A stretch of DNA of 53,878 bases from a virus. The position numbers and the translations under genes are program-made. Location of the stretch: the IMG/VR virus record IMGVR_UViG_3300013232_000048. One strand, written 5' to 3'. The notes beneath the pieces are model-generated. The model did no database searches. It saw only the letters and a list, made by a program, of their open reading frames with translations, and was not told where the DNA came from. The stretch's first letter is position 1; each line of letters opens with the position of its first letter. Of this stretch, positions 4,239 to 26,769 are shown one piece after another.

Positions 4239-4259
4239 CCTGACGTACTGGTTGAATGT

Positions 4260-4916: not shown

Positions 4917-4921
4917 AAGTT

Positions 4922-11800: not shown

Positions 11801-14800
11801 ACACAGTCAACGAAACCTATTTGATGTTTTACAACATGTCTTTGCCTGACAATAAATCAGGTCCTGCCGCCAAACTTACACATAAGTATGTAGAACCTAT
11901 TACTAGTTGGACTACGATTGACTTGACGTTGAAATGGGTAACAGACCACATAGCATCAATCAAAGGAGGAAACTATAGTGTTCATTATTATAACGTAGTG
12001 GGTCCAGGACAAGAAGCCAAGACGATTCGTTTGAAGAAGAAAGATGAAGCTGTCCTTTTGGAATTGGGATACAAATGGGTACCATCGTGGGTGCAAGGTA
12101 AACCAAGTGCTTATGTCAATATTATTGGAGGCAAACGCATTGAGTTTTACAACAAAAATCTGGAGCAGTATAGTGGAAACTCTAGTATTGGTGTGCGTTT
12201 GAAAAATTATGAGGGTACAAAAACACTAAATGAATGGATTGAGATTGAAAATGCATTGTTATCGTTATCGTTAAGTGAAGGAAAAAATAAAGCATCTAAA
12301 CAGAGTATATTGACTTATGCAGACGCCAACCCGATTATAAATAATCATCTTCCAACGGTTCTTACTGCGGATGCCAATCTGTATGATCTGATAACATTTA
12401 AGGAGGATGAAAAAAGCGGACAGAAAGAAATGGATCAGAGTACGGGTGAAATATGGGTATCGTATGAAGGAAAGTTGAGGTTTGCCATTGGAAAACTAAA
12501 TGTTAATGATTGCCTGGAACCATCATGGTATATTCGTCAAGTTACTGGGGTAGATAAAATTAAGTTGGGTGAAGAGATTTATACTTTTTACACCGCCAAC
12601 AATGCAATACAGTATATCAATAAATATAGCTTACAGTTTTTAACCGGCGTTCCAATAACGCAGAGCTTGTTACTAAATAAAAAACCAAAAGGAATTGCCG
12701 GCAAAGACCTTTTACCACTTCATTTTGCCGTACTAGGCATAGCCGCAGGGTTTAGTCAAGTGGGGAATGAACAGGAAGGTGTGGTTTATACACATGAAAA
12801 TGGAGAATTTTCATTTACTTGGACTCCTACAAGTATTACTTGGTTTGCCGGTGAGGTCGGCATTAAAGAAGTTACTCCTCTTGCTCCCGCAACTACAACC
12901 GAATTTATTGCGAGCGCACTGGAAAATTGTGGCCCGGAGATGAATGTTGCTGAATTGGACAAAGTATTTTGTTCGGCGGCGCAATCGAGAAAAGAAAAGA
13001 TATTTGATCGTATGCTTAAAATAGCAAGGAAGCATAACGGTGCCAATATGGAAGGAACTCGGTTACATAAGGCGTTGACAGACAAATGGTTTATATGGAA
13101 TGATTTCGATCATGTGTATATGAACGAGAGACTATCTCAAGTTGTGGTAGTAACTCTGTCTAAAAATGTTGCTTACAATGAATATCATCTGTACTGGATA
13201 AAGGTAGATGGTAGTATTGCTCATGCCACACCGGGGGAAACATTGTTGATGGCGTTTATAGGTCCTAATGGTTCATTGAAACAATACCATCAGACTTTCA
13301 AGTCTGCAAAAAACCTTACTTTGACGCCAAGTGGTCATTTATACAAGGTGCATAGTAATGAAGCCAATGCCGACCGTATTAAAGTAAATGAACATGATAC
13401 TGAACTTCTTGAAAAGTGCGGATTTGTTTGGAATTCTTCCTTTTTTGCTTATACTAATTTAGATGAAGATTCATTTTCATTTACCAACACCGATAAAGCA
13501 CAATATTGGAATGCCGCAGAGTTTATGGGATATGGATTTGATGAAATCTCTCAAGCACTGACGTTTGCTATTCAAAAATACATAACTATGGCAGTAGGTA
13601 CTGGAGTGCATCCAACTCAAGCACATTCCAAAATGATTACAACTCCCATCACTGCTCCAAATAAAATGGCTTCCGAAGAAAGTTGGGGTCCGTTTAGTGA
13701 TGAGGCGTATGATAAAGATTATCCAGAGGATGAAGATGACGTGGATATGATTGACTTGAATGACCAAGATACTGGTGAATTGAAAAAACTTGGCTTTGAG
13801 CATGATCCAAAAAACCATAGTTACGTGAAGCACATTCAGAAGGGAGAAAAACCAAACATGAAGTATAAGTTTATCGAAGCAAAGAAGAAAGGCAGTGATA
13901 AGGGTAAAAAAGGCAAACATATTGCTAAGCAGTTTGATTTACCACTGGATGACCCAAAGCACGAGGAACCAGTTGGAGAACTAGATCAGTATGAAGTTAT
14001 TTATGCATTCAATACTGGCAATGCAACGTGGACTTTAACTGACGATCCAGGACCTGGTGGGGATGAAACACAGATGGAAGATGGGACAATCAAGGAAGTC
14101 TTAACCTTTGTTTGGAAGCGATGGTCCAAGATCAAATGGAGTGAGCTACCTTCGGATAATGTATCAAAGAAACTTAGTGAAATGGGATTTACATTCACAG
14201 GAGAAGTAGGTACTGCGGGATATACATATACTAAAAAGATAGGAGAATTTACAAACAAGGTTCAGATATATCCTCCAGATAAGTTTATTTACGTTGTATA
14301 TCAAACCGCTGGCGGATCAACAGCCGAACAAGTTTTCAAATATGAAGATACGATTGACGGAGGCATAAAGTATTTGCAGACGCATGTTCATGCTCCTCCA
14401 CCAAAGAAGAACCCATTACCAAAGAAGTCTAAGCATATTACGACCGTGGAAGATGCGATTCTTAATGGTGGGGGGAGATATATGGATGCTCCATTAGAAT
14501 GGAAACAATATGCTCCGTATGCTCCAGTTAAATCTCCAAAATCTACGACGGTGTATCCAGCACAAATACATAATGAAATATTAAACCTTGGATTTGTTTG
14601 GAGTGACAATCTTGGGATTTATACAAAAAATTACGCCGATGTCAATAAATGGGAAGCAGTAAAATATGAAGATGAATTGGCGTTTTATTTTTATCCAGCT
14701 ACAAGTTGGGATATGTCACGACGGTATTTTGTCTCTAAAAACTCCACTGCGGTTCTTAACAAAATACACATTATTGATAGTTGGAAAAGCGAAAAATCTA

Positions 14801-15498
14801 AAATTTGGGGTGGAGGAACTGGTGAAGTTCCATACAGTGGATTTGATTATGTTAACTTTTACCACAAGGAGCAGGGGCTTCCTACTAATATGAGTATTCA
14901 ACTTGAACCCAAGGACGAAAAGGTTATGGAAGATATGGGATTTAACTTGAACCATTTGCCTGCAACATCCAAATCATACAAATATGCTTATGTCAAAGAT
15001 GCCGAGCGAATGTTCTTTTTTGCTGGTGGTGGGGTGGCCCCTGGAGCGGCGTATTGGACAGACAATACAGGAGTTCAACAATACTTTCCAACAGTAAAGC
15101 AAGCAATGCAGTTTTTGTGGGATAAATATGCTCCAAAGAAAAAGGTGACTGGTGAGATGCCGTTTAGTGATTATCCATATCATAACCTATGGAAGTTACA
15201 AAACATCAACCAACACGTTGCCATTAAGTTAGTGGACGATGACTACGAGGTAATGAAGAGTATGGGATTTAGAGAAAAGTTTAACAAGGGTCTTGGACCC
15301 TATTATCAGAATGGAATTGAAGATATAACATTTTATGCTGATGGAACGGCGAAGTATTGGGAAAACAACACTTCGGGCAACCCTCCTACAAAGTTTCCTT
15401 CGGTAAAAGCTGCAATGACAAAACTCTGGAGAAAACACGCTCCTTACATTGAAGAAACCATTGGTTACGAAGACCTAACTGATCTTATGATGGCATAG
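5836..15498 (+). CDS. giant 3220-aa repeat protein of unknown function
   Basis: Single uninterrupted 9663-nt ORF. It contains many divergent repeats of about 90-110 aa with the pattern GF(K/T)Y...YxDG.s.Y...tF.el..fL...YG, an acidic DEDEDEDE stretch and a KKGSDKGKKGK stretch. Confidence 0.85.
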   Translation: MAISLKEQLNQAQQITEVIYRAPIFGYNYYQHGNHSKGREQGRRMFYDFYAMELLWSKLGGGAGSKAEQNRVNQAKAKVAAGTATDDDYFYANLDPKYSGISAWHGTSAVAGAVILPHKLQTTVDDLYEQVTRAVSKELLDYVRFAVIQEFQYLISYSDGWSKFRQEIVSHYNSSSTITKQQFDAIVNKRIPEMRPYPSVVKRLLKYSKYFSSMHTIDDKDPFDVTRNLSGKPPVGPSEPEDPFIEPQGHEEDEPISMPGGEEPPPEGEEIPGREFGTQGDVVGNIPPGWPDDKDEDEDEDEKNKLTEQLLTEEEINPKKIKKVMAAMKKADITLDDIEKSYNYIPWGGGYGGPKWGAGALALLKLMEARKTMDVEGLNSIIDHIYDLQHNTGALLNKGPMYVEDEDLNRRYKIRHIARFLPHVSLVVKGIITICLKYLENDPAQAKLEMEKEKIVSSPTKDMTPEQQAFLKEKGFNFVNAGRCRAAINFKNKMGASVSGVYYQITAHADGRFSVNDNLMADIQVFNTFEEVQKFIPHFEADIKKGGVSSSSSSHAAPIKSEKEIYKQSHSRIKLPADKETDLLYQAKMGWRNSQKYKAYFPGSKRFELYAFSDGSFLATYSDSMEFKVFTDWINAFNYCKTEGAKALDYPDKDGALAAIGKGGSGNVVSPSEPVGAPVVPSKPVVTVDYYLEPLEVQSIKQLLSAASFTAIHVIGQDSTGMYNIGTLQNGHLFSVGHKLNTAYGKTYRVAHNLPGGVPETWTFSDWKQTYEFLQKNLQGLIKNIPISSTKSFLSATTPLAYTPTGNDLPAYSPSKASYAMHTGIQTPPKHTIRLTKEDEALVTAAGFIPKMLSGDVWYIHKFAKDTIKFYPNNTAKLLFTSQSSTVPGVNFNNIEKMLVWVQKNYTSTTTKSPLETGVPTAAPVAGGGTQLGSMMEKILISAGFAWNDATKTYEDANKPGAPNTIVIKPNKASVLMVKPNTAYNDEVHHFANLLDLMTYIKDVYPTDKKKSKPAVAPTVAVSPDVAKMTKSDLHEKLFSLGYKTTLKVVSNGVEYLHPSNGSVIILYYDGKSLYISPAATIKYAFNTFQELSDYLDKLYPGGGSMDFSKLPKEPTGGGITNEEYEQLKSLAGKHGYISSWMGSQGQAGVSDHVSIYKKPVDESPPAKYPLVYTVWKYGEYYQINDVNGNPLSLTDGFEKLKQSIEKLLDPKEALITLLELLKQGGFQYVKGPSKNGGYEYANTKNESFQYFPHNKTSTLYDAAVSNMVFFDNLQQAVDYLTKKYGNLTPSPVAKDVEVPFAKVGKITVFPSWATDKLRDLMEKGKFYYKGPTSGGVGYRYDNEAEDWITLYKDGSSEVYDKKHGNSIAYNNLPDLMEYMQEKYGSSPAPEEDVPTKEVPSTIDLLGDLPAALAKGGFKYASPVDSSDDSYSSGSVYDGNDGTRIVFYDSGKSNIYYSNGSSISLNTPNELVQWLIDKYGQPYQSHTEELYARLKQYGYKDYPYSNPQFVTWIHPTSTDRIQVQDDGHVIIDPAVTAEEKGAVSIYLDTPQQLLEYLDKKHGPAKLKLKQIHEELPKLLKEIGFVLEVLPHISLNQVYKHPQGSTFTVHEKNKAYEIHVGSIKVTYQSITDAIYFLNQYFHTGGNNAEASMVTGNTGNTALDAAINNAGFKYHGTAEDTSAMIFYSNDGVQLKIFDDKSSIHNWPQTAMGGKQKVTTFNDFESLTEFLGQLHGRKEPKPEDFPFPQLLAQWEDLSGKLKDYGFTYKTTSKSGNVSYKVYSHVNLVNLTVYADGKSAYMGKASVGGLTFNTFKELESFLDTHYGKKEDYAISYYDNLGPSQTAYSIRLKEEDEKQLKSLGWVWVPSAESSTVSAYVHKDTAKRLVFYNMLLAVNKDKPTAALLDKSFYNLMDFKGKFIPEVIAYFIEHPEKISDANPPGGKYSVHYYDEVGPDQSHYSIRLRKEDEEILEDHGFIWRPAHNSGDPNWYQNTVNETYLMFYNMSLPDNKSGPAAKLTHKYVEPITSWTTIDLTLKWVTDHIASIKGGNYSVHYYNVVGPGQEAKTIRLKKKDEAVLLELGYKWVPSWVQGKPSAYVNIIGGKRIEFYNKNLEQYSGNSSIGVRLKNYEGTKTLNEWIEIENALLSLSLSEGKNKASKQSILTYADANPIINNHLPTVLTADANLYDLITFKEDEKSGQKEMDQSTGEIWVSYEGKLRFAIGKLNVNDCLEPSWYIRQVTGVDKIKLGEEIYTFYTANNAIQYINKYSLQFLTGVPITQSLLLNKKPKGIAGKDLLPLHFAVLGIAAGFSQVGNEQEGVVYTHENGEFSFTWTPTSITWFAGEVGIKEVTPLAPATTTEFIASALENCGPEMNVAELDKVFCSAAQSRKEKIFDRMLKIARKHNGANMEGTRLHKALTDKWFIWNDFDHVYMNERLSQVVVVTLSKNVAYNEYHLYWIKVDGSIAHATPGETLLMAFIGPNGSLKQYHQTFKSAKNLTLTPSGHLYKVHSNEANADRIKVNEHDTELLEKCGFVWNSSFFAYTNLDEDSFSFTNTDKAQYWNAAEFMGYGFDEISQALTFAIQKYITMAVGTGVHPTQAHSKMITTPITAPNKMASEESWGPFSDEAYDKDYPEDEDDVDMIDLNDQDTGELKKLGFEHDPKNHSYVKHIQKGEKPNMKYKFIEAKKKGSDKGKKGKHIAKQFDLPLDDPKHEEPVGELDQYEVIYAFNTGNATWTLTDDPGPGGDETQMEDGTIKEVLTFVWKRWSKIKWSELPSDNVSKKLSEMGFTFTGEVGTAGYTYTKKIGEFTNKVQIYPPDKFIYVVYQTAGGSTAEQVFKYEDTIDGGIKYLQTHVHAPPPKKNPLPKKSKHITTVEDAILNGGGRYMDAPLEWKQYAPYAPVKSPKSTTVYPAQIHNEILNLGFVWSDNLGIYTKNYADVNKWEAVKYEDELAFYFYPATSWDMSRRYFVSKNSTAVLNKIHIIDSWKSEKSKIWGGGTGEVPYSGFDYVNFYHKEQGLPTNMSIQLEPKDEKVMEDMGFNLNHLPATSKSYKYAYVKDAERMFFFAGGGVAPGAAYWTDNTGVQQYFPTVKQAMQFLWDKYAPKKKVTGEMPFSDYPYHNLWKLQNINQHVAIKLVDDDYEVMKSMGFREKFNKGLGPYYQNGIEDITFYADGTAKYWENNTSGNPPTKFPSVKAAMTKLWRKHAPYIEETIGYEDLTDLMMA

Positions 15499-15827: not shown

Positions 15828-16769
15828 ATGACACAAACAGATTTCTCGCCTCTCGATGCCCACGGCGTCGGTTCCCAAAATATCATCAAACAAAAGATCA
15901 ACAACGGAGATACTCTTACCTCCGATGACGTTGGTGCTTTAATAACTGAACTACAACGAAATGTGCAATCACCAGCCGTAGATAAAATGGCAATCGAAGT
16001 TAGACAAACTCTTCTTACTGCATCGGACAGAGAAGTGGCGCTAACTGGAGAAGTATTGAAAGAAGTTATGAAAGAATTCATGCCTGAAGATAGAGTTCCG
16101 CCTGCCTTATCTACTAACCCTGTGAAACGGAAAGCATTCGAAGAAACCAAAAAGATAATAGATAACTTTCGTGAAAAAACGGCAAACTATCCTAAGTACA
16201 TATCGTATGAAGGGTCAATGGTGTTATGCGTCATGCTCTCAATGAAAGATGTAGCAAGTGTACATATATCTAACCTTCCACAAGTGGACCAAGATGTCAT
16301 TAAAGGATTGTTTGTGGGGGCTCCCAATAAATGCGTTACTAACTTCAGCGTAAAGTTTGATAATGACAAGGATTTTATCCTATTAGATTTTTATGCACAC
16401 AATGATTTCACCGTTAAAATGCTAAACTCGGTTGCTCATCCAAGACCTGAAGATTTGAAAGATGTTGGAGAAGTAGTCCCCATTGAAAATGATGGAGATC
16501 GCATTGCCGTTGGTGGTAAAATTATTATGGACAAACGAAACATCCAACGTCTGGGTGGAATAGTAACTGGAGATCATAAGCCAGAAATGGATGTAGAGTT
16601 AGCTCCAAAACGACAACCTGTTAGTGGTCGCAATGCGTTTGAGATTCGCACTGATATTATGCAAATGGCTTTGGATTGGTCGGTGGCTAATAACAAAACA
16701 GGAATGTCACCTGCCGATGTAGTCAATGTTGCCAAAGTTTTCTATTCATTCGTTGAAAATAGAAGGTAA
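15828..16769 (+). CDS. hypothetical protein
   Basis: 313-aa ORF and first gene of a tightly packed plus-strand cluster. It is preceded by an A-rich leader. Confidence 0.6.
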   Translation: MTQTDFSPLDAHGVGSQNIIKQKINNGDTLTSDDVGALITELQRNVQSPAVDKMAIEVRQTLLTASDREVALTGEVLKEVMKEFMPEDRVPPALSTNPVKRKAFEETKKIIDNFREKTANYPKYISYEGSMVLCVMLSMKDVASVHISNLPQVDQDVIKGLFVGAPNKCVTNFSVKFDNDKDFILLDFYAHNDFTVKMLNSVAHPRPEDLKDVGEVVPIENDGDRIAVGGKIIMDKRNIQRLGGIVTGDHKPEMDVELAPKRQPVSGRNAFEIRTDIMQMALDWSVANNKTGMSPADVVNVAKVFYSFVENRR

Positions 16770-16771
16770 AT

Positions 16772-17074
16772 ATGGCCGAGATCATCGAAATAACAGATGA
16801 TGATTTGATAGAATGGGATAAGAATATTGCAAGGTTTATTCGTTTATCCGATTATCAAAAAATGAAAAAGTTGTTGCAATCCATTGATACACAGTTGGAA
16901 CCGTTGAAAGTTGATGATACGTTTGTCCCAAAAAATGCCCGCCAAGGATCGATTCAGTATCATAACAAGGTTAAAAAGGTGGCCCTTGCCCGACAACGTG
17001 AGCGGGTGATAAAAAAGATGTCGGAGCTTGAAGCACTCATCAAACAGGATATTGATTTATTAAAACAGTTATGA
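16772..17074 (+). CDS. hypothetical protein
   Basis: 100-aa ORF that starts 3 nt after the stop of the previous gene. Confidence 0.5.
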   Translation: MAEIIEITDDDLIEWDKNIARFIRLSDYQKMKKLLQSIDTQLEPLKVDDTFVPKNARQGSIQYHNKVKKVALARQRERVIKKMSELEALIKQDIDLLKQL

Positions 17075-17107
17075 TAAACACACAAAACACACACAGAAAG
17101 GTTCATT

Positions 17108-18202
17108 ATGATAGATTACACAAAAAGATCCCTGGAGGGACTATGGGTTGGAGATTGCATTGGAAATCTTGGTCAACTTTACTTCGTTCACGATATTCTT
17201 AAAGCCCTTGAAGGCGGATTAGCCAAGTTCGGCGGGCAACTGGATAAGTTTCAAAAAGGATTCGTTTATTCCGATGATACGGAAGAAGCCATCGTGCTAT
17301 ACAATCACTTGATGAAGTCTGGAGGTCGAACTCCATTCATTGATCAAGATATGTTGGCCTTAGAGTTTGCTGCTCGTTATATGGAGCGTGACCCCGATGG
17401 AGAAATCTATGGGTATGGTCTAAACACCCGCAAAGTCCTCCGTGACATTTATGAAGGAGTGCCGTGGCGAGAAGCCAATAAGATTATCAAAAAAAGTGAA
17501 GGTATGCCTTCCCATATTGATAGTTTGGTAAATAGCTTATCCCAAGGTAAGGGTTTCAAAGATGCAATGGGCGATGTTAATACTGCTCTACAAAAACAAC
17601 GAACTGACCAGATGAATAAAGTCAAAGAAGGTTCCTGTGGCAATGGTTCGGCAATGAGAGTTGCACCGCTGGGAGCATTTCTTGGTGGTATGGTTGATCT
17701 TCAACCTGATAGAATGATTGCCGAAGCAGCACTTCAAGCGCAAGTTACACATTGTCATCCCGAAGGTATTGCTGGGTCTATTGCTATTACTACGGCAGCA
17801 TTAGTTGTTGCGAGTACGCATCAATCTGCCGAACCATTTATGGCTAGTAAAGGGTTATTACAAAAAATCATTCAGTATGTTCCAGAGAGTGAAGTTAGAA
17901 ACGGAATCAAAAAAGCAATGGATCTTCCGGTTGAAACTCCCATCGGAAAGGCAATAGAAGTCCTTGGCAATGGAACTCACGTTACATGTCAGGATACAGT
18001 GCCTCTTTGTTGTTGGTTGATTTCCAAACACTTACAGAAATATTCTCCCGAAGAAACATATGAGAAAGCAATTATTGAAACTTCAATGGCGTTCGGAGAT
18101 GTAGATACTAACTGCGCTATCGTGGGTGGTGTTGTAGGCATTGTCAGTCCTCCACCTGACAAATGGAAGAAGTTTTGCAATCCAATGGAAGGAGTAATAT
18201 GA
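17108..18202 (+). CDS. ADP-ribosylglycohydrolase family protein (ARH/DraG-like)
   Basis: The N-terminal motif SLEGLWVGDCIGN, the central GSCGNGSAMRVAPLG and the C-terminal GDVDTNCAIVGGVVG match the conserved ARH family motifs (metal-binding Asp/Thr). Confidence 0.8.
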   Translation: MIDYTKRSLEGLWVGDCIGNLGQLYFVHDILKALEGGLAKFGGQLDKFQKGFVYSDDTEEAIVLYNHLMKSGGRTPFIDQDMLALEFAARYMERDPDGEIYGYGLNTRKVLRDIYEGVPWREANKIIKKSEGMPSHIDSLVNSLSQGKGFKDAMGDVNTALQKQRTDQMNKVKEGSCGNGSAMRVAPLGAFLGGMVDLQPDRMIAEAALQAQVTHCHPEGIAGSIAITTAALVVASTHQSAEPFMASKGLLQKIIQYVPESEVRNGIKKAMDLPVETPIGKAIEVLGNGTHVTCQDTVPLCCWLISKHLQKYSPEETYEKAIIETSMAFGDVDTNCAIVGGVVGIVSPPPDKWKKFCNPMEGVI

Positions 18203-18804
18203 GCTTATCGCTAATGGCAATCATCCGTGACGATCCCGATTTCGGGAAACGCATTCAAAAGAAAGTTGAAGAGATCAAACAGGACAAAGCAAACTTGTTG
18301 AACTTAGCTGACGATTATGGACAAAGGTACCAACAAGAAATCATTGAAGGTACTGAGTTGAGAAACCGAATGCTCACCGAAGGTACTTCCAAGGGATTGA
18401 GCGAAGAACAGATTATGGCAAGTTATGGGAAGTTTGTTCCCACTGTTTATACGCCCATCCTGAACTTGTTGTATTTTCTCATTATGGAATCCGCCGACGA
18501 TCCATATTATGGAGATAAGCGTTATCAAAAACGAACTCGGTTAGACGAGCAATTTGGTCACTTGCGGGAGGAAGAAGTAAAAAGTGAAGTATTGAAAGAA
18601 CCTCCGAAGATGGAAGAGTTTTTGTATGGAACTCTTACTCTGGAACAGTTTGATGTACTGAAGAAGTTGAAGGCATTGGCACAATCTCCCAATATCAATG
18701 AAGCTACGTTGGCATTCAAAAAGTGTCGGGAATTATGTGCAAAATATGAGCTTGACTATGAGAGGATTCCATGCTATGTTAAGAAAAAGGAGAATCGTGT
18801 ATGA
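18163..18804 (+). CDS. hypothetical protein
   Basis: 213-aa ORF whose start overlaps the end of the ARH gene. Confidence 0.5.
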   Translation: MEEVLQSNGRSNMSLSLMAIIRDDPDFGKRIQKKVEEIKQDKANLLNLADDYGQRYQQEIIEGTELRNRMLTEGTSKGLSEEQIMASYGKFVPTVYTPILNLLYFLIMESADDPYYGDKRYQKRTRLDEQFGHLREEEVKSEVLKEPPKMEEFLYGTLTLEQFDVLKKLKALAQSPNINEATLAFKKCRELCAKYELDYERIPCYVKKKENRV

Positions 18805-19256
18805 AAGAAATAACTATGAAGTCGGGTACAAGGGCGGAAATACTTGAATATCTGCGGGCAAAAGGAATCAAGACTATTACAGTTAACTCAGATGCATCTG
18901 GAGATAACAAGGTTTGGTCTGAAACCCCGAACCCCGGGGAATACTTTGTGTTTTCTCATAATTCTATTGAAATGCAAATGGATAACTTTATCAACGAAGG
19001 AAGTCCCGTTGTATCGATTTGTATTTCACAGGCGGATGGTAAAGCATGTCGGGAGCAGTTTTTTGTTACCGATTATGCCAGTATCAGGACGGATATGGAG
19101 ATCGAAAAATTGGACGACTCAGATATTAGAGAGCGGCGAATAAACGCCATTAAAACAGTTATGGCAATGGAGTTGGATGCCGAAGAGCGGTGGGATCGTA
19201 TCTTGAAGATTGTGGACCAATTTAGAGGAGTTTCTTTCGCATTTGGACCTGTATGA
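18801..19256 (+). CDS. hypothetical protein
   Basis: 151-aa ORF with an ATGA overlap onto the previous gene and an AAGGAG SD upstream. Confidence 0.5.
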   Translation: MKEITMKSGTRAEILEYLRAKGIKTITVNSDASGDNKVWSETPNPGEYFVFSHNSIEMQMDNFINEGSPVVSICISQADGKACREQFFVTDYASIRTDMEIEKLDDSDIRERRINAIKTVMAMELDAEERWDRILKIVDQFRGVSFAFGPV

Positions 19257-19468
19257 TGACCTGGCCAGAGTTTCAAGATTATGTAAACGAAAACATAGAT
19301 TTCACCAAGCAATGTATTGTTTTCAAATGTTTGAAGTGTGGACGGAAACATTATCATACAGGCATCACCGAATACGTTTACAAGTTACGATATAAACACA
19401 CTTGTTTTTATTGTGATGGAGAAGAAAAAGAAGTTTATGGAGGACCATTCAATGGAACTATTCACTAA
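19253..19468 (+). CDS. small zinc-ribbon protein
   Basis: 71 aa with CLKCGRKH...CFYCDG (two CxxC pairs). Confidence 0.4.
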   Translation: MMTWPEFQDYVNENIDFTKQCIVFKCLKCGRKHYHTGITEYVYKLRYKHTCFYCDGEEKEVYGGPFNGTIH

Positions 19469-20138
19469 AGAAGAAATTGAGAAGTATGGGTTCATTTATG
19501 AACCTGACGAAACTAAGTGTAAGACCGCAAAAACGGGTCCACATTACAAGTGTAACTATTACAAGGACGGAGTGTTTACTGACACCGCAGGTCCAGTTCT
19601 TACTGATGAATGGAAAGAGTTAGTTGTTGAACATATCAAGTCCAGAATTCCACAGTGGACATATTTTCATTCCATATTTGTGCCAGATGTTTCTCCTATG
19701 AGTGGAGAAGGAGTTAGGTGTCAGTTTGTAATGGTACGTGGACATGGGAATGAACTTGTAGATAAATGGTTCAAGACTGGGTTTCTTGATGATATAGCAT
19801 TGGATCAATATCCCGAGGCAGCATTGTTTTTCCATCATGTTGCCAAAGAGATTATCCGTTCAAATCCAACAAAGGGAACTCCAGAATGGGATAGGTTTGA
19901 TAAGTTGGCAGGTCTTGTATTACCTGTTGCTCATGATTTGTTCAAGAAGTGTTATCCCCACACCCCAGACCCAAAATGGATAATGGAACAATGTGAAAAG
20001 TTTTTCGATGAACATCAAAGTCTATACGAAGACCTGAAACAGGGGATAGCACAAGACCATGAGCGAGAGTTCGGGGAGTTGTGTTTGATGGAATTAGAAA
20101 GGAGTTTGAGTTATGAAATGTTCCGCCGGACCAAATGA
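19437..20138 (+). CDS. hypothetical protein (track ORF 19338-20138 trimmed to ATG 19437)
   Basis: Long ORF. The upstream part overlaps the previous gene and GGAG precedes ATG 19437. Confidence 0.45.
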   Translation: MEDHSMELFTKEEIEKYGFIYEPDETKCKTAKTGPHYKCNYYKDGVFTDTAGPVLTDEWKELVVEHIKSRIPQWTYFHSIFVPDVSPMSGEGVRCQFVMVRGHGNELVDKWFKTGFLDDIALDQYPEAALFFHHVAKEIIRSNPTKGTPEWDRFDKLAGLVLPVAHDLFKKCYPHTPDPKWIMEQCEKFFDEHQSLYEDLKQGIAQDHEREFGELCLMELERSLSYEMFRRTK

Positions 20139-20394
20139 TTATCATTTTCTAGCCAAACAAAAACTTGTATTAACTTTGCGTGATTGTCAGCATAAAGTTA
20201 CGAATGTTATAACTGCTTCGGTAAACTGGGATTTGTTTGAAGATCTTATTCCTCACCACGGAGAAACGGCGGCTAAAGATGCGTGGTGGGAAGTATATTT
20301 GTGGATGAAAGAACAAGAAAAAATACAAGATGATAGCTTACAAACTGTTCAGAAAACGGAAGAATGGAACTCTGGGTCCATTGTTCATCAATAG
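20113..20394 (+). CDS. hypothetical protein
   Basis: 93-aa ORF that overlaps the next ORF in another frame. Confidence 0.3.
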   Translation: MKCSAGPNDYHFLAKQKLVLTLRDCQHKVTNVITASVNWDLFEDLIPHHGETAAKDAWWEVYLWMKEQEKIQDDSLQTVQKTEEWNSGSIVHQ

Positions 20395-20641
20395 AACTTT
20401 GATAATACCTCAAGGTCAGTGGTTGAAAGCAGAAGCTCATCGAACCAAACGATTTAAGTTTAGACCTGGATGGCATTGTTGTGCTTTTCCTAAAGCACCG
20501 CATTTGTCTATGAAAGATCGAGTGTGGTGTGAAGTTGAAATCGAAGATTTTGTGGGATTTGTTAGACCCGAAAGTCAAGGTGGATTGTGGTATTTAGCAA
20601 AAAACTTGCGGTTGATTGGAGAAATGAAACAGAGACATTGA
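20330..20641 (+). CDS. hypothetical protein
   Basis: 103-aa ORF that is basic and Trp/Cys-containing. It overlaps the ORF at 20113-20394, so one of the two may be spurious. Confidence 0.3.
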   Translation: MIAYKLFRKRKNGTLGPLFINRTLIIPQGQWLKAEAHRTKRFKFRPGWHCCAFPKAPHLSMKDRVWCEVEIEDFVGFVRPESQGGLWYLAKNLRLIGEMKQRH

Positions 20642-20801
20642 TATGAATACCATTGAAAAGATTGTTGTTGCGTGCGCCGGTATTGTTCTGGTGGTAGTGA
20701 TGGGAATAATTTGTCTGTTTACAACGAGGCCAAATCCGTTTCCACATCAAGATCATCCTGGCATTCCAAGGAATTGACATAAAACAATACACGATATCTA
20801 A

Positions 20802-21425
20802 ATGGGTTATTTTAATATGAACTACACTTGTCATAGCGGAGGATGTCCCGGCGCAGATATGGCGTGGGAGCGATTGGGTAAAAGATATGGCGTCAAAACC
20901 ATCGCTTACTCATTTCACAACCATGTTCACGAGGGGGAGAACCCAAAGATTTTGACCGTGGACGAACTAGCAGAGGGATGGACACACGTTAAGATGGCAG
21001 ACAGGACGTTGAAGAAGAACGTGGAGAGTCTTGATTCGCCGTATATGAGAAACCTCCTTTGTCGGAACTGGTTTCAGGTCAAAAACTCCGATGTGGTGAT
21101 CGCCATAGGTAAACTTATAGACCAACATACGGTTGGCGGAGGTACTGGTTGGGCAGTCCAAATGGCTATTGACGCTGACAAACCAGTGTTTCTATTCCTT
21201 CAAGACGCTATGGGAGGCGGTTGGTTTAGGTATATGCCCATCGTGGGGTTTGAATGGAATCGTGGTGAGATACCAAGACTGACAGAGAATTTTGCGGGTA
21301 TTGGTACTCGGGCATTGAACCAGTACGGTGAAGCAGAAATAGACAGAGTATATCGTCTAACTTGTATTGACGATTACAATGAAAAATTGAAAGGTTCGGG
21401 ATTTAGAAAGATGTATCCACAATGA
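20802..21425 (+). CDS. SLOG-superfamily (DprA/Smf/LOG-like) Rossmann-fold nucleotide-binding protein
   Basis: HSGGCPGADMAWE resembles the SGGA(R/K)GID motif. VVIAIGKLIDQHTVGGGTGWAVQMAIDADKPVFLF resembles the second DprA/LOG motif (GGGxG ... vfavp). Confidence 0.55.
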   Translation: MGYFNMNYTCHSGGCPGADMAWERLGKRYGVKTIAYSFHNHVHEGENPKILTVDELAEGWTHVKMADRTLKKNVESLDSPYMRNLLCRNWFQVKNSDVVIAIGKLIDQHTVGGGTGWAVQMAIDADKPVFLFLQDAMGGGWFRYMPIVGFEWNRGEIPRLTENFAGIGTRALNQYGEAEIDRVYRLTCIDDYNEKLKGSGFRKMYPQ

Positions 21426-22156
21426 AAGCATTCGTAAAAGTTAGAAAAGGAAACTTCCCCGACGTAAATTATTTTATGGCGTGGAAAGGATTTGATGAAA
21501 TCGGTTATGAAGTCATCAAGTTTGAAGAAGACCAAGAAAGTACCATTGATGTCACCGAGGATACTCCCGTGTTTGCGGGCGTGGGTTCCTGTCGCAAAAT
21601 CATCAAGCGAGTGTGGGGATGGGACTATACAGGTATCAATCCTTACCCCGACGAATTGATGCCATATATGCATCGTAAAGTGGAGCGTAAGAAATGGATA
21701 GATGCTCGGCAAGAAGCTTTGGAAGGACATAAGTTCATCAAACCTGTAATTCAAAAACAGTTTACGGGTGTGGTATTAAGTACGCTTTTAGACACCATCC
21801 GCACAGGCAAGATAGATGAAAACCATGAGGTATATGTAGTCGAACCTGTTGAGTTTATCGCAGAATATCGAGTATATGTCCATGAACATGAAATCGTTGG
21901 CGTAAAACATTACTTTGGAGATTGGTATAGTGCTCCGGCCAAAAGAGTTGTTGATGATATGATTGAGGCATATAAACCGTCAGCACCAATAGCATATGGG
22001 TTAGATGTTGGTATTATCAAAGACAATCAATATCATTTAGCTCCGGTAGAAATCAATGACGGTATTTGTCTTGGAAACTATGGGCTGGATCAGATACATT
22101 ATGCCGAAATGATTGCGGCAAGATGGCAAGAGCTTACAACCAATGGAAAAGTATAA
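21422..22156 (+). CDS. ATP-grasp-like enzyme
   Basis: 244 aa. HKFIKPVIQKQFTGVV followed by alternating hydrophobic strands and EINDGIC/LGNYGL resembles ATP-grasp ligases. No exact motif is certain. Confidence 0.4.
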   Translation: MKAFVKVRKGNFPDVNYFMAWKGFDEIGYEVIKFEEDQESTIDVTEDTPVFAGVGSCRKIIKRVWGWDYTGINPYPDELMPYMHRKVERKKWIDARQEALEGHKFIKPVIQKQFTGVVLSTLLDTIRTGKIDENHEVYVVEPVEFIAEYRVYVHEHEIVGVKHYFGDWYSAPAKRVVDDMIEAYKPSAPIAYGLDVGIIKDNQYHLAPVEINDGICLGNYGLDQIHYAEMIAARWQELTTNGKV

Positions 22157-22431
22157 TGGAATCGCTTAAGCATATTACGAAAGATGAATACTATGAGTGG
22201 CTGAAGTCTGCTGATAAGATTGATGCTGAATATCCTGCGTTTACAAGCTGTGGTGGCCCCCATGAATTTGTTACGTCCATTCATAAAGATGGAATGCTGT
22301 ATTCACTATGTTTTGGATGGTATCCCGAAAAAGATACAGATCCAAATGCAAAGTATAAGTTCAAAACCATTTACTGGTGGGGAATACAAAAGTTATACAA
22401 AGAACCGGGACAAGAAGGAGAAGGTATATGA
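22156..22431 (+). CDS. hypothetical protein
   Basis: The track ORF 22066-22431 overlaps the previous gene. ATG 22156 gives MESLKHITKDEYYEW.... Confidence 0.4.
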   Translation: MESLKHITKDEYYEWLKSADKIDAEYPAFTSCGGPHEFVTSIHKDGMLYSLCFGWYPEKDTDPNAKYKFKTIYWWGIQKLYKEPGQEGEGI

Positions 22432-22658
22432 TAATAACAAACGAAGTAGAGATTATTGATGTTAGTGCAGTAGATATTACAGACCTTCCGGTTGGGAAGT
22501 GCTTAGAACGTAAAGTAGTTTTTGTTGAAGATGGAACTTCTACGATTGCCTGTTTGAGATTCAAATTGAATGGAAAGTGGATTCATGTCCCCAAAGATAT
22601 TCTGAAACGAAATCTGAAAGGCCCACGTTCAAAAGAAAACAATTACGGAAGATGGTAA
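22428..22658 (+). CDS. hypothetical protein
   Basis: The ATG follows GGAGAAGG. The product is MIITNEVEIIDVS... and is basic at its C-terminus. Confidence 0.4.
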   Translation: MIITNEVEIIDVSAVDITDLPVGKCLERKVVFVEDGTSTIACLRFKLNGKWIHVPKDILKRNLKGPRSKENNYGRW

Positions 22659-22699
22659 AAAGAGTTGACATTGGGGTAAAGATGTAGTATGATGCGACA

Positions 22700-23113
22700 A
22701 TGAATGATTGGATTGAAAGAGCAATGCAAATAGCAACCGTTGCTCACGAAGGACAGAAGCGAACAAACGGAAGTTCTTACATAGAGCACCCTGCTCGGGT
22801 TGCAGCGAAGGTGGAAGATCGTCTAAAACCGATTGCGTGGTTGCACGATGTTGTGGAAGATACTAAGGTTACAATGGAAGACCTTAGAGCGGAGGGGTTT
22901 CCTACGTACATACTTGATGCTGTTGACGTTTTGACTCATAAAAACAAAGAGCCAAATATGACATATTGGAAACAAATCCTCACAAATCCAGATGCCGTTA
23001 TCGTTAAACTAAGGGATATTGAGGATAATCTCGCTGAAACGCCGAGTGAGTACGCCAAAGAAAAGTATGCACGGGCGTTGGCATTATTCAAGCAAGCGGG
23101 GCATTCTCTTTGA
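22700..23113 (+). CDS. HD-domain small alarmone hydrolase (RelA/SpoT hydrolase-like, Mesh1/SAH-type)
   Basis: 137 aa. It carries AxxAHxGQKRxxGxxYIEHPxxVA ... LHDVVEDT, the classic (p)ppGpp hydrolase HD signature. Confidence 0.75.
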   Translation: MNDWIERAMQIATVAHEGQKRTNGSSYIEHPARVAAKVEDRLKPIAWLHDVVEDTKVTMEDLRAEGFPTYILDAVDVLTHKNKEPNMTYWKQILTNPDAVIVKLRDIEDNLAETPSEYAKEKYARALALFKQAGHSL

Positions 23114-23148
23114 TATTTTTGGTTGGCGAGACATATTTATAAGACACC

Positions 23149-23225
23149 GCTGGTGTAGTCCAATGGAAGGAGACAAGCGACTTAAAATCGCTACAGTGCG
23201 GGTTCGAGTCCCGCTACCAGCACCA
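23149..23225 (+). tRNA. tRNA, class I body with anticodon UAA (a Leu-decoding anticodon); CCA encoded
   Basis: Acceptor GCTGGTG/TACCAGC. The anticodon stem AGCGA/TCGCT is perfect with loop CTTAAAA. T-arm is GCGGG-TTCGAGT-CCCGC. The variable loop is short. Confidence 0.6.
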
Positions 23226-23227
23226 AT

Positions 23228-23312
23228 GGCCGTGTGGATAAGGGAAGCAGGTACAACCGGAAGTCCTAAAAACTTCTATCCTATGTGGGTTCGAATCCCT
23301 CCACGGCTACCA
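23228..23312 (+). tRNA. tRNA, long (85 nt), putative anticodon UAA; arm assignment unresolved
   Basis: Acceptor GGCCGTG/CACGGCT and canonical T-loop TTCGAAT. The stem GAAGT/ACTTC with loop CCTAAAA is the likely anticodon arm. It is a paralog of the tRNA at 29420. Confidence 0.45.
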
Positions 23313-23501
23313 CTTTATGGAAAAAACCGATACATTACTATTAGATTGGTTTGATCAAGGAGAAGTTATTGATAAAATACATCAAGTAGAATGGATTGTG
23401 TTACATAAAAAGATAAGTGTGCGAGACGCCATTAAAAGATGTCTTGAATTCGAAGATGAGATTACATAATTTTTCAGATTATAAAAAGCCAGAAAAACTG
23501 C

Positions 23502-23531
23502 TTGACATTTTCGTGGGTTTGTCCTATACTT
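23502..23531 (+). promoter_or_regulatory. sigma70-like promoter (TTGACA-N18-TATACT)
   Basis: TTGACAttttcgtgggtttgtccTATACT sits upstream of the OMP gene, and the SD AAAGAGAAAG precedes its ATG. Confidence 0.45.
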
Positions 23532-23594
23532 ATCCACGATATAGTAGCCTTGTAAAGTAATGGGCTACAAAACAACCAAAAGAGAAAGAAAACT

Positions 23595-24155
23595 ATGAAG
23601 AAATTCACAAAATTGTTCGTTGGCGTGTTTTGCGCCGTGTTACTTGCAACCTCGGCATTTGCTGCTGATAAGGTAGTAAAGGCAACCAATGCTCCGGTCG
23701 CCGTAGAAACAGTGAAAGCTGCTCCGGCTCCTGAAGCATGGGTACTAACTCTTGGTGGAGTTGGAAATACGGTAACAACCTCGGGTGGAGATACCGCATT
23801 TGGTGTGGATCTGAGCTTGGGTCGCACTGGGCATTTGCTTCTGCCGCTTGAAGCTGGTGTTCGTCAAAGTGTATCCTACAGTGATGGAGATACTACATTG
23901 AATACTCGTCTGTATAGTGACTGGACGCTGTTTACTGTTGTCAAAAAGGTTGACGTGTTTACCGGCGTAGCTGTTGGTGTTCAATATGGGAACCAAAATC
24001 CATCGTGGGAATTGGCTCCTGAAGCCGGTGTAAGATGGTGGCTTAAGAAGGATGTTGCCGCTGTTGCTCGGGCTGAGTTTCCATTTGCCATTGATGACAG
24101 TTGGAAATACAAGGACGACGTTCGTTATTTCCTTGGCTTCGCAGTGAAGTTCTAA
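23595..24155 (+). CDS. outer-membrane beta-barrel protein (OmpW/OmpA-like fold)
   Basis: Signal peptide MKKFTKLFVGVFCAVLLATSAFA, alternating amphipathic beta-strands rich in G/Y/W, and a C-terminal ...GFAVKF ending in Phe. Confidence 0.65.
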   Translation: MKKFTKLFVGVFCAVLLATSAFAADKVVKATNAPVAVETVKAAPAPEAWVLTLGGVGNTVTTSGGDTAFGVDLSLGRTGHLLLPLEAGVRQSVSYSDGDTTLNTRLYSDWTLFTVVKKVDVFTGVAVGVQYGNQNPSWELAPEAGVRWWLKKDVAAVARAEFPFAIDDSWKYKDDVRYFLGFAVKF

Positions 24156-24216
24156 ACAGATTTGCGGAGCAATTCGCAAATGGTGGAGGGTAACGCTCTT
24201 TGAGCTATCGCCCCTA

Positions 24217-24247
24217 GCGAGTGGCCTTCGGGTCACTCGTTTTTATG
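24217..24247 (+). terminator. rho-independent terminator
   Basis: CGAGTGGCCTTCGGGTCACTCG followed by TTTTTAT, directly after the OMP gene. Confidence 0.5.
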
Positions 24248-24295
24248 TACATTATCGGCTTGACAAAAAGTATTATTTGTGGTATGGTGTGTCCA

Positions 24296-24487
24296 ATGAA
24301 GAAAACGACTAAACATAACATCTACGAAGTGTGGTGTGATTATACTGCGTCCAGTGTGTTTCTTGATCATAAACCCACCAAAAAAGAAGTAGAAGAAATT
24401 CGCCGTAAACAATGGCCAGGATCTGATCAATGGGATATTCCATACAAGATTATTGTATTTAAGCTGAAACCTTTTTATACAAAATGA
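24296..24487 (+). CDS. hypothetical small protein
   Basis: The promoter-like TTGACAaaaagtattatttgtggTATGGT at 24260-24288 precedes the ORF MKKTTKHNIYEVWCDY.... Confidence 0.35.
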   Translation: MKKTTKHNIYEVWCDYTASSVFLDHKPTKKEVEEIRRKQWPGSDQWDIPYKIIVFKLKPFYTK

Positions 24488-24723
24488 GTAAATATGTTGA
24501 CCCAAAATCGGTTAAGATGATTGACCTTGTTAAGGATAACAAGAAGGTTCGATTTTCTTGTTTTCGTGATGGAGAGTTCTGGTATGAGCATGAGGATGGC
24601 CTTTTGTTTCCAATCGCACTGAGCGAAATCACTGCAAGTAGAGTTATATTACTTGCCGAGGACAAAGCGATTTACTTTATGCGGTGGATGAAGAAATACA
24701 TCGCCGCATCTAAGGAAACATAA
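24484..24723 (+). CDS. hypothetical protein
   Basis: 79-aa ORF with an ATGA overlap. Confidence 0.4.
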   Translation: MSKYVDPKSVKMIDLVKDNKKVRFSCFRDGEFWYEHEDGLLFPIALSEITASRVILLAEDKAIYFMRWMKKYIAASKET

Positions 24724-24725
24724 GT

Positions 24726-25127
24726 ATGATTGCATACATTAGTGGGCATTTGGATTTGAAAGTTGAAGAGTTTGACCAGCATTATGGCTCTTTAATAAGA
24801 GAAGCGGTTAAACGTGGGGATACTTTTGTTGTTGGGGATGCCAGGGGTACTGATACGATGGCATTGCAATACTTAATACCTCAAAAGCCATTGGGGGTTA
24901 CTTTGTACCATATGTTTGTCAAACCTAGAACCCCCGAACATGTACTGATGGCTATTACAAACCAACTCAACTTGAAAATAGTCGGTGGTTTCAAATCGGA
25001 TGAAGAGCGTGATGCGGCGATGACGGCGGCAAGTGATTATGATATTGCTTGGGTGCGTCCTGGTAGAGAAAAATCTGGTACAGCAAAAAACATTGCAAGG
25101 AGAGCAAAATGTCAAATGACGAAATGA
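24726..25127 (+). CDS. second SLOG/DprA-like Rossmann protein (YpsA-like)
   Basis: 133 aa. TFVVGDARGTDTMALQYL resembles the SGGARGID/DprA-LOG motif, and a second glycine-rich strand is present. Confidence 0.45.
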   Translation: MIAYISGHLDLKVEEFDQHYGSLIREAVKRGDTFVVGDARGTDTMALQYLIPQKPLGVTLYHMFVKPRTPEHVLMAITNQLNLKIVGGFKSDEERDAAMTAASDYDIAWVRPGREKSGTAKNIARRAKCQMTK

Positions 25128-25501: not shown

Positions 25502-26242
25502 ATGAGAATAAATATGGAAGGACAACGATTTGGGCGTTTGTTAGTTGAAAAATTCAAAGGACAATCAAAAGATAGAAAGGCATTGTGGGAATGTTTGTGT
25601 GATTGTGGTAAGACTACAATCGTAAGAGGAAAACATTTACGGCGTGGCCAAATTGTAAGTTGTGGATGTTATCGTCGTGAAAAAGTGACGGAAGCACTTT
25701 TCAAAAACTTGACGGGAAAGCAATTTGGAAGATTAGTTGCTACGAAAATAGATAAAAATGTTCGTGGATGTTATTTTTGGGAATGCCTTTGTGATTGCGG
25801 TAAAAAAGTAATAGTTGCTGGCAATAAACTTACTTTTGGGCATACCCGAAGCTGTGGATGTCTTGCAAGAGAGATGGCATCTAAACATTTTAAGGCATTG
25901 TGTAAAATCCAAAAGGGAAAAAATCATCCACGATGGAATCCAAATATAACTAATGAAGAAAGACGAGAACGAATAGAACGAAAACGACAAGAATTTCGAG
26001 AATTAAAATGGAGAAATATGGTTTATGTTAGAGATAAATATACCTGTCAAAAATGTGGAGATTGTCGTGGAGGAAATCTTAATGCTCATCATATTTTCTC
26101 ATGGAAAGATTATCGAAAGTTGCGGTATGTAGAATCTAATGGGATAACTTTTTGTGAGGAATGTCATAAAAAGTTTCACGAAATAAATGGTTATGGAAAT
26201 AACACAAGAAAACAACTTACAGATTACATGCAAATTGTGTAA
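25502..26242 (+). CDS. HNH homing endonuclease with duplicated Cys4 zinc modules
   Basis: Two repeats, CLCDCGK...SCGC, followed by YTCQKCGDC...NAHHIFSW...N...FCEECHKKFH, the HNH motif. Confidence 0.75.
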   Translation: MRINMEGQRFGRLLVEKFKGQSKDRKALWECLCDCGKTTIVRGKHLRRGQIVSCGCYRREKVTEALFKNLTGKQFGRLVATKIDKNVRGCYFWECLCDCGKKVIVAGNKLTFGHTRSCGCLAREMASKHFKALCKIQKGKNHPRWNPNITNEERRERIERKRQEFRELKWRNMVYVRDKYTCQKCGDCRGGNLNAHHIFSWKDYRKLRYVESNGITFCEECHKKFHEINGYGNNTRKQLTDYMQIV

Positions 26243-26504
26243 TATGCCAGCACCAACAAGGAAACATCATCTTATTCCTCGGTGTAAAAAAGGAACTGAA
26301 ACGATTGATTGCTGTGAAACGTGTGAAAGCTATTTACATCGTCAATGGACTCATAATCAGCTTCGGGACACATACAATTCGGTAGAAGTAATCTTAGCAG
26401 ATGCCGGATTTCAAAAGTTTTTGAAATGGCGTCGTAAACAACCCGCCTCGGCGTTATTCAAATCAAGTCCAGGCAAATTTAGAGACAAACATCCATATCA
26501 TTGA
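26187..26504 (+). CDS. small HNH-like nuclease
   Basis: CKLCNMPAPTRKHHLIPRCKKG...DCCETCESYLHRQW. It is compact with a His-His plus Cys4 pattern. Confidence 0.45.
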   Translation: MVMEITQENNLQITCKLCNMPAPTRKHHLIPRCKKGTETIDCCETCESYLHRQWTHNQLRDTYNSVEVILADAGFQKFLKWRRKQPASALFKSSPGKFRDKHPYH

Positions 26505-26505
26505 T

Positions 26506-26769
26506 ATGAGGTTAACCATACCTATTCATTATGTCTATATTGTAAAGTGTGCCGATGGCACATTATACACGGGTTATACGATGGACTTGGATAAAAGGGT
26601 AGCCACTCATAACAAAGGTAAAGGAGCAAAGTACACCAAGCCAAGATTACCAGTGACGCTGGTGTATTTCGAAGAATATGAATTTCCTGGGGACGCTAAA
26701 AGGCGTGAGCATGCTATCAAACGATTGACCCGAAACCAAAAACTGATACTTATTTGTGCCCATGAATGA
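26506..26769 (+). CDS. GIY-YIG nuclease domain protein
   Basis: VYIVKCADGTLYTGYTMDLDKRVATHNKGKGAKYTK ... FEEYEF...REHAIKRL contains the GIY...YIG, Arg and Glu motifs. Confidence 0.8.
   Translation: MRLTIPIHYVYIVKCADGTLYTGYTMDLDKRVATHNKGKGAKYTKPRLPVTLVYFEEYEFPGDAKRREHAIKRLTRNQKLILICAHE

Follow-up and report, generated by a model that had tools for sequence, protein, structure and literature searches.

A variable segment with ADP-ribose-, NAD- and alarmone-linked gene families in a putative very large phage genome

The stretch of DNA analysed here (hereafter the window) is the 53,878-nucleotide virus record IMGVR_UViG_3300013232_000048 of IMG/VR, a JGI metagenome contig (sample 3300013315), which bears the marks of being part of a very large (jumbo-type) phage genome. 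Within it, positions 15828-25127 encode an ADP-ribosylglycohydrolase (ARH, also termed ARG), an ATP-grasp ligase of the R2K clade, a small RelA/SpoT-type HD pyrophosphohydrolase (HD) and two SLOG proteins (SLOG1 and SLOG2). We favour, with moderate confidence, the view that this region is a variable host-manipulation or counter-defence segment of a large phage, the proteins of which probably act independently of one another. A first-pass annotation made from the sequence alone had grouped the five genes into one multi-component module, as each family is tied to nucleotide-signal or ADP-ribose metabolism. The link of the families to ADP-ribose, NAD and alarmone biology is reasonable, and both SLOG families are found in an NAD gene cluster of an unrelated lineage. 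The single module is not borne out: the five genes show no co-variation among 13 related contigs, SLOG1 neighbours R2K in the closest relatives only, ARH or R2K is decaying in some relatives, and HD and the gene that follows it have promoter-like sites of their own, with a terminator-like hairpin after the latter (g17; genes are numbered as in Table 1). From the families, folds, motifs, synteny and mosaic distribution described below, we infer candidate substrates, targets and expression timing.

Mosaic distribution of the genes

Searches of IMG/VR, GTDB genomes and assemblies, anchored on R2K, SLOG1 and SLOG2, yielded 13 distinct related contigs, the window included. The same gene order is kept in full in one of them, the 236-kb contig L002, with 63-97% protein identity and a SIR2 gene replacing g06-g08. 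As the families were confirmed by profile searches and the order is kept in L002, we encountered neither of the two outcomes that the annotation had named as counting against it, namely assignment of the genes to unrelated families and a neighbourhood conserved in no related genome. However, no contig other than the window and L002 has all five genes. R2K is present without ARH in three contigs (L130, L131 and L141), ARH, HD and SLOG2 are present without R2K in another (L085), and HD and SLOG2 stand alone in a further one (L093). SLOG1 occurs in 3 and SLOG2 in 4 of the 13 contigs. What recurs is a loose core of g01, ARH and/or SIR2, the DUF2786 protein g04, R2K, HD and the secreted-looking g17, sometimes joined by a DSPc phosphatase or by a second or third ARH; the SLOG genes are optional additions to this recurrent core.

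In relatives with R2K at 41-76% identity, ARH and/or SIR2 lies no more than about 3 kb from R2K, as does HD. The most compact arrangement is that of L133, where ARH, g04, R2K and HD fall inside 3.6 kb, and L135 is similar inside about 5 kb. In each of these two contigs one of the genes is damaged: the L133 ARH (8481-9275) has lost about 100 internal residues including SDDT, the first metal motif, and the L135 R2K (3427-5233) is N-terminally truncated beside an inserted 381-amino-acid open reading frame (ORF) on the opposite strand. In the 364-kb contig L130, an ART-PolyVal ADP-ribosyltransferase, SIR2 and DSPc surround R2K and there is no ARH. In the more distant L132 (11224-13279) and L136 (11236-14306), R2K is followed by a 162-amino-acid gene and then by two different tandem ARH paralogues.

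An alternative to independent action is that the genes form one obligate multi-component counter-defence system, in which ARH would erase ADP-ribose marks, R2K would modify either the host transferase or the marked target itself, HD (or DSPc) would clear the released phospho-ribose or nucleotide products, and the SLOGs would sense or sequester an ADP-ribose-derived signal. Consistent with this, ARH and/or SIR2 is found at most about 3 kb from R2K in 9 of the 11 R2K-bearing related contigs, down to an R2K identity of 41%, and ARH, g04, R2K and HD are drawn together in L133 and L135. Operons of the form R2K.2-ARG-R2K.3 are reported from Firmicutes (PMC4431377), and in bacteria phosphatases of the rhodanese type or of the alarmone-type HD class are frequently coupled with ARG systems (PMC9503650). 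Yet the presence and absence of the five genes show no co-variation, and SLOG1 lies near R2K in only 3 of the 13 related contigs and, 9 kb off, in 1 of 46 other SLOG1 lineages. No ARH is found around the more distant R2K genes of bacteria and other phages, promoter-like and terminator-like sites split the region, and ARH or R2K is degraded in relatives that retain the other genes. On balance, we regard an obligate system as unlikely.

Several points nevertheless weigh against our preferred reading of independently acting counter-defence proteins. That ARH/SIR2, R2K and HD keep recurring across widely differing identities could be due to functional coupling as well as to shared ancestry. SLOG1 and R2K share 4 bases at the SLOG1 stop codon, where R2K begins, an overlap that suggests that the two are translationally coupled in this phage and that would also fit an obligate system. 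The promoter and terminator calls that divide the region are consensus matches only, not mapped transcripts. SLOG1 stands beside replication genes in about 10 of 46 other phage lineages, which points to DNA metabolism. Finally, a PADLOC search with ten proteins, including all five named ones, gave no match, a result that says little about anti-defence because PADLOC holds models of defence systems.

A more specific form of cooperation, which we consider highly improbable, is that the ARH/SIR2-DUF2786-R2K-HD block, with or without DSPc, is a phage system that both erases and blocks ADP-ribosylation. ARH could take off host-imposed ADP-ribose, and R2K could attach an amino acid as a cap to the freed acidic acceptor, or to the host transferase's catalytic glutamate, a step that could parallel the glutamylation of SidE by Legionella SidJ. 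HD or DSPc could then destroy the released phospho-ADP-ribose product or signal, and the two SLOG enzymes could degrade soluble ADP-ribose-derived messengers. If it were true that ARH, R2K and HD cooperate, the region would show how large phages undo ADP-ribosylation-based immunity. Term searches of PMC7824862 and PMC9503650 did not find the block of g01, ARH/SIR2, DUF2786, R2K, HD and g17.

Predicted activities of ARH, R2K and HD

Under the preferred reading of a segment with independently acting proteins, each enzyme can be considered by itself. The ARH-family hydrolase proposed at 17108-18202 was confirmed: it matches Pfam ADP_ribosyl_GH (PF03747) with E 5.3e-40 and 138.3 bits against a cut-off of 26.2, with profile positions 3-277 of 287 covered by residues 9-345. 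Among solved structures ARH3 is closest, and in the alignment both metal motifs are present, YSDDT corresponding to YTDDT of ARH3 and GDVDT to GDTDT. Such an ARH3-like enzyme with an intact two-metal site would most likely act on macromolecules that host ADP-ribosyltransferases or sirtuins have modified, stripping off the ADP-ribose. An exact-protein look-up with ARH returned no match, and tblastn with the relatives' copies as queries found no partner ADP-ribosyltransferase or SIR2 in the window.

With respect to the missing partner, the window ARH resembles AdfN, a phage NADAR 'orphan antitoxin' shown experimentally to reverse the DNA ADP-ribosylation imposed by DarT1 (PMC11825919). The window ARH is a predicted phage ADP-ribose eraser that likewise lacks a partner transferase, and it would be able, as AdfN is, to reverse an ADP-ribosylating host defence whatever the structure of the toxin; however, the ARH and NADAR folds are unrelated. 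Bacterial ARG-phosphatase systems (PMC9503650, section 3.8) also combine an ARG lacking a partner transferase with a phosphatase of the rhodanese/DSP type or of the alarmone-type HD class, and the lineage studied here has examples of both: HD in the window, and DSPc together with HD in L130 and L134. In contrast to the bacterial systems, the window has no Nudix, WYL transcription factor, chaperone or restriction endonuclease effector, and it is phage-borne, with ARH and HD 4.5 kb apart and R2K between them.

The ATP-grasp-like ligase that the annotation had recognised at 21422-22156 can now be placed more exactly, as it matches Pfam R2K_2 (PF18299) over the full profile (positions 1-147 of 147; E 3.5e-36, 124.7 bits against a cut-off of 26.2). 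None of R85, K107, E210 and N212 varies among 25 homologues, in which the conservation of K112 is at least 90%; from the description of the clade in PMC4431377, we infer that R85, K107 and K112 are the arginine and two lysines that name it and that E210-x-N212 is its ExN metal motif. To judge from the family, an R2K.2 ligase would join a protein carboxylate to an amino acid or a peptide. No match to R2K was obtained in a single-protein scan of IMG/VR or in a sequence search of the PDB.

As in the R2K.2-ARG-R2K.3 operons reported from Firmicutes (Burroughs, Zhang and Aravind 2015, PMC4431377), R2K.2 is genomically linked to an ARG in the window, suggesting that both act on proteins. Unlike those operons, the window has one R2K and no R2K.3, eight genes separate ARH from R2K, and the R2K-ARH link is absent at the 18 other R2K loci scanned here. 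At these more distant loci from bacteria and other phages, GNAT acetyltransferases were the most frequent of the 137 neighbouring proteins and no ARH was among them, which rules out a universal R2K-ARH link.

The third enzyme, annotated as a RelA/SpoT-type small alarmone hydrolase (SAH) at 22700-23113, also belongs where it had been put. Its best solved match is the '(p)ppApp hydrolase' Aph1 (PDB 7smg, 1.4e-20), followed by RelSeq (2.7e-8) and 16 further RSH, Mesh1 or related HD-domain chains of the PDB; NCBIfam spoT_relA (9e-13) and phrog_990 (6e-40) match as well, and the His/Asp motifs align to those of Aph1 and RelSeq. Pfam HD_4 reached only 20.8 bits, under its cut-off of 27.2. The term '(p)ppGpp-hydrolase type' is fair as a family label, but the sequence does not tell which substrate is preferred.

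Aph1, which is itself phage-encoded (PMC10083569), shares with HD a short architecture (137 amino acids in HD versus 149) and the HD catalytic motifs. Its (p)ppApp specificity depends on D24, R96, D116, R119, K133 and Y134 (PMC10083569), and four of these six residues are changed in HD (D24 to R21, R96 to Q92, D116 to A112 and R119 to P115), whereas K122-Y123 of HD may match K133-Y134, outside the aligned stretch. On these signature residues HD is not classed as a (p)ppApp-specific Aph, and no (p)ppApp synthetase toxin was recognised beside the gene. Because the Aph1 D24R/R119A double mutant also hydrolyses ppGpp (PMC10083569), a broad or guanosine-directed specificity is plausible. The candidate substrates are (p)ppGpp, (p)ppApp or both, or pyrophosphorylated tRNA; by removing the 3'-pyrophosphate from such alarmones or from tRNA CCA ends, HD may blunt stringent-response or toxSAS-type abortive infection. 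Alarmone-type HD phosphatases of bacterial ARG systems are, for their part, thought to process released ADP-ribose (PMC9503650).

The tRNA substrate deserves separate consideration, as HD could instead be part of a phage translation toolkit together with the tRNAs and the tmRNA. Its main job would then be to remove the 3'-pyrophosphate from tRNA CCA ends modified by CapRel-/FaRel2-type toxSAS, soluble alarmones being secondary. HD is directly preceded by a promoter-like site, 35 nt separate its stop codon from tRNA-Leu(UAA) with a second tRNA-like gene next, and the window holds 33-37 tRNA genes plus a tmRNA. SAH enzymes are able to reverse tRNA CCA pyrophosphorylation and so restore aminoacylation (bioRxiv 10.1101/2021.04.30.441581), and toxSAS systems take part in phage defence (PMC9712102, PMC11245113). 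In the relatives, however, the genes beside HD encode epimerase, DSPc or R2K; at the position of Aph1 D24, HD has the Arg that (p)ppGpp hydrolases have there; and tRNA and nucleotide substrates are indistinguishable by sequence. We hold this role of HD to be a minority possibility beside the independent counter-defence function favoured here.

Two SLOG families and the known phage repertoire

The annotation had pointed to two distinct SLOG Rossmann proteins (20802-21425 and 24726-25127). In structural models both SLOG1 and SLOG2 have the Rossmann-like SLOG fold, and the two share no sequence similarity; since a profile-profile comparison also found none, they are not recent paralogues. Alignment with homologues indicates that SLOG1 probably starts at the ATG at 20817, not at 20802. 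Its best fold match is the cpYpsA-type 3imk, not DprA. The SLOG2 family comprises more than 1,150 homologue clusters and is highly conserved, and Pfam has no model for it. In one homologue the SLOG2 part is joined to DUF4326, a domain whose proposed role is the processing of ADP-ribose phosphates (PMC9503650).

The Rossmann-like fold is common to the window proteins and to ShosA/DprA (8zva), YpsA (2nx2), 3imk, the Moco carrier protein, LOG and the SLOG domain of ThsA (7uxs). Glycine-rich loops are likewise shared with the solved SLOGs, namely GDARGxD and PGxxxSGT in SLOG2 and SGGxxGxD and GGTGWA in SLOG1. There is no significant sequence match to any solved SLOG; in PDB sequence searches SLOG1 gave no match and SLOG2 chance-level matches only. 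Whereas ThsA, ShosA and DprA carry effector or DNA-binding domains, the window SLOGs (207 and 133 amino acids) are single-domain proteins without these and without the extra DprA domains. Membership of DprA/Smf (PF02481) was ruled out, as neither protein has a Pfam match and the DprA-chain E value is about 0.9.

In both families, many polar and charged residues stay invariant among members that share 50-60% identity and come from phages, bacteria and giant-virus bins. Such conservation fits enzymes, or proteins that specifically bind a universal small molecule, better than it fits fast-evolving decoys, and the idea of the first-pass annotation that the two SLOGs could be sponges for a signalling nucleotide is therefore somewhat disfavoured. 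To judge from fold, residue conservation, the DUF4326 fusion and one NAD-cluster context, the two unrelated SLOGs would bind or process a nucleotide derived from NAD or ADP-ribose. The context in question is that of the unrelated lineage L066 (IMG/VR 3300045988_104686, 8134-13993) and eight close relatives, in which the genes follow in the order calcineurin-like phosphoesterase, NAD synthase, SLOG1, NMNAT-like nucleotidyltransferase, a further gene, NUDIX, SLOG2, YqeY and dNMP kinase, with SLOG1 and SLOG2 in L066 1.5 kb apart.

It is also conceivable that the window SLOGs are DNA-metabolism factors (DprA-like single-stranded-DNA binders, recombination mediators or nucleotide-pool enzymes) whose location here is incidental and which have no role in ADP-ribose metabolism or signalling. 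The PHROG label of the SLOG1 family is DprA-like recombination mediator, a few SLOG1 homologues do match Pfam DprA, and a DprA-type single-stranded-DNA-binding role has been suggested for jumbo phages (PMC7824862). Among the neighbours of SLOG1 in 46 dereplicated lineages, clamp-loader-like, exonuclease-like and dUTPase-like genes and homing endonucleases recur, the first three accounting for the replication context noted above. Neither window SLOG reaches Pfam DprA, however, both lack its additional domains, and SLOG1 is closest in fold to the cpYpsA type. The DUF4326 fusion of a SLOG2 homologue, with its predicted processing of ADP-ribose phosphates, and the position of both families amid NAD synthase, NMNAT-like and NUDIX genes in L066 also argue against a purely DNA-related function, which we judge to be rather unlikely. 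A conserved SLOG1-R2K pair was ruled out, R2K being nearby in the single SLOG1 lineage of 46 already mentioned; apart from that lineage, no R2K, HD or ARH was found near the distant SLOG genes.

The families discussed here, read as components of a variable counter-defence segment, are all represented in the catalogue of Iyer, Burroughs, Anantharaman and Aravind (PMC7824862, PMC9503650), which covers ARG/ARH, SIR2, YpsA-/DprA-like SLOG, R2K, HD and DUF4326-SLOG and makes like predictions, with ARG acting on macromolecular ADP-ribose, SLOG on ADP-ribose-derived signals and HD on alarmones. R2K, an HD-alarmone phosphodiesterase, DprA/SLOG and SIR2 were all listed for jumbo phages in 2021 (PMC7824862), and in 2022 viral SLOGs were predicted to act on ADP-ribose derivatives, with SLOG domains in 31% and ARG in 5% of jumbo phages (PMC9503650). 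At such frequencies, SLOG and ARG together in one large phage are unsurprising. In contrast to the catalogued cases, the phage lineage and gene order of the window are absent from INPHARED.

Each family, as well as the R2K-ARG and ARG-HD phosphatase pairings, has thus already been described in comparative-genomics papers of one group (2015, 2021 and 2022), and the region would appear to fit, without standing out, into the NAD/ADP-ribose and alarmone counter-defence repertoire known from phages. It adds a new lineage to an existing catalogue and no new principle. Its main value lies in the recurrent ARH/SIR2-R2K-HD block and in two large SLOG families with confident structural models, and it offers concrete, well-modelled cases from widespread phage families, namely a transferase-less ARH, an R2K ligase, an Aph1-like hydrolase whose specificity residues are altered, and the two SLOGs.

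Layout of the region and the wider window

About 20 ORFs occupy 15828-25127, all co-oriented on the + strand and in agreement with the gene calls on record for the source contig (Table 1); the earlier description of thirteen or more packed, co-oriented genes is consistent with this count. The term 'island' does not apply in a compositional sense, because the GC content of 0.40-0.42 is close to the 0.38-0.41 of the flanks. The annotation is further corrected by two tRNA-like genes inside the region (23149-23309); a 111-amino-acid ORF at 23019-23354 overlaps both and is probably spurious.

Table 1 Features of the region 15828-25127 and of one related contig
Feature	Position	Strand	Remark
g01, 313 aa	15828..16769	+	Opens the block in most relatives
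g02, 100 aa	16772..17074	+	
ADP-ribosylglycohydrolase (ARH/ARG)	17108..18202	+	Pfam, ARH3 alignment
g04, 201 aa, DUF2786-like motif C-terminal	18199..18804	+	With ARH and R2K in most relatives
g05-g10, variable filler (151, 71, 266, 93, 103 and 44 aa)	18801..20777	+	SIR2 gene in this slot in relatives; g09 matches phrog_12224
SLOG1, 207 aa, SLOG fold	20802..21425	+	Closest to cpYpsA-like 3imk
R2K.2 ATP-grasp ligase	21422..22156	+	Pfam R2K_2
g13 (91 aa) and g14 (76 aa)	22156..22658	+	
Sigma-70-like site, TTGACA/17-nt spacer/TATGAT, 11/12	22665..22693	+	Directly 5' of HD
Small RelA/SpoT-type HD pyrophosphohydrolase (SAH)	22700..23113	+	
tRNA-Leu(UAA)	23149-23225	+	
tRNA-like match, weaker (Rfam 36.9 bits, 11-nt D-region insertion)	23228-23309	+	Not called by ARAGORN
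Sigma-70-like site, 11/12	23502..23530	+	5' of g17
g17, 186 aa	23595..24155	+	In 8/13 related contigs, adjoining HD or ARH
Terminator-like hairpin, 11-bp stem then T run	24216..24241	+	3' of g17
g18 (80 aa) and g19 (79 aa; phrog_20427)	24245..24723	+	
SLOG2, 133 aa, minimal SLOG fold	24726..25127	+	
L130: ART-PolyVal	4482-4886	-	Set of three in contig L130
L130: SIR2	7977-8720	+	As above
L130: DSPc	10811-11281	+	As above

With promoter-like sites before HD and g17 and the hairpin after g17, the region appears to comprise at least four putative transcription units: g01-g14 (with ARH, SLOG1 and R2K), HD with the two tRNA-like genes, g17, and g18-SLOG2 and beyond. The + strand of the window has five sigma-70-like sites matching at least 11 of 12 positions, where shuffled sequences have 0.97 +/- 0.92, and all five (22665, 23502, 27948, 30920 and 50521) lie in gaps before + strand genes; on the - strand, sites at 3685-3713 and 3971-3998 lie near - strand ORFs. 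This enrichment suggests transcription by the host RNA polymerase, in a host with canonical -35/-10 promoters, and the host is probably a Gram-negative bacterium with sigma-70-type promoters.

Two further members of the loose core are g01 and g17. The C-terminal part of g01, about 215 amino acids, is conserved and defines a family with 143 representative clusters; searches with a profile built from 37 homologues reached significance in neither Pfam nor the PDB, and weak matches to PF24182 appeared in 6 of the 37, with a best E of 0.0023. The N-terminus of g17 is signal-peptide-like and its C-terminus ends in GFAVKF, Phe-final as in outer-membrane beta-barrel proteins, and g17 is possibly an exported or outer-membrane protein; it has no Pfam match, and a PDB sequence search gave chance-level matches only.

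The reading of the window as part of a very large phage genome is based on an ORF of 3,220 amino acids, the tRNAs and tmRNA, homing endonucleases and a near-uniform + strand orientation, almost all genes of the window being on that strand. The tRNA genes number 33 according to ARAGORN and 36 according to Rfam, and near and distant DNA searches of INPHARED returned matches to tRNA-Leu only. A dense array of about 32 tRNA genes amid small ORFs extends over 28150-53401 (+), with the tRNA-Leu at 23149 outside it. A full-length tmRNA (RF00023, 102 bits, E 6e-39), missed by ARAGORN, was found at 5381-5785 (+), just 5' of the 3,220-amino-acid ORF (5836-15498, +); the latter has no Pfam match and contains many short similar stretches of the form '...YSIRLKEEDE..L...G..W.P...'. 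In the middle of the tRNA array, an 851-amino-acid protein (41668-44223, +) matches the domains of the eukaryotic major vault protein (MVP_shoulder 1.6e-21, Vault_3 6.6e-7). On the 3' side of SLOG2, positions 25502-26769 (+) encode an HNH endonuclease of 246 amino acids, a small Cys-rich ORF and a GIY-YIG endonuclease, and the copies of the Cys-rich ORF and GIY-YIG gene shift position among the related contigs, as homing elements do.

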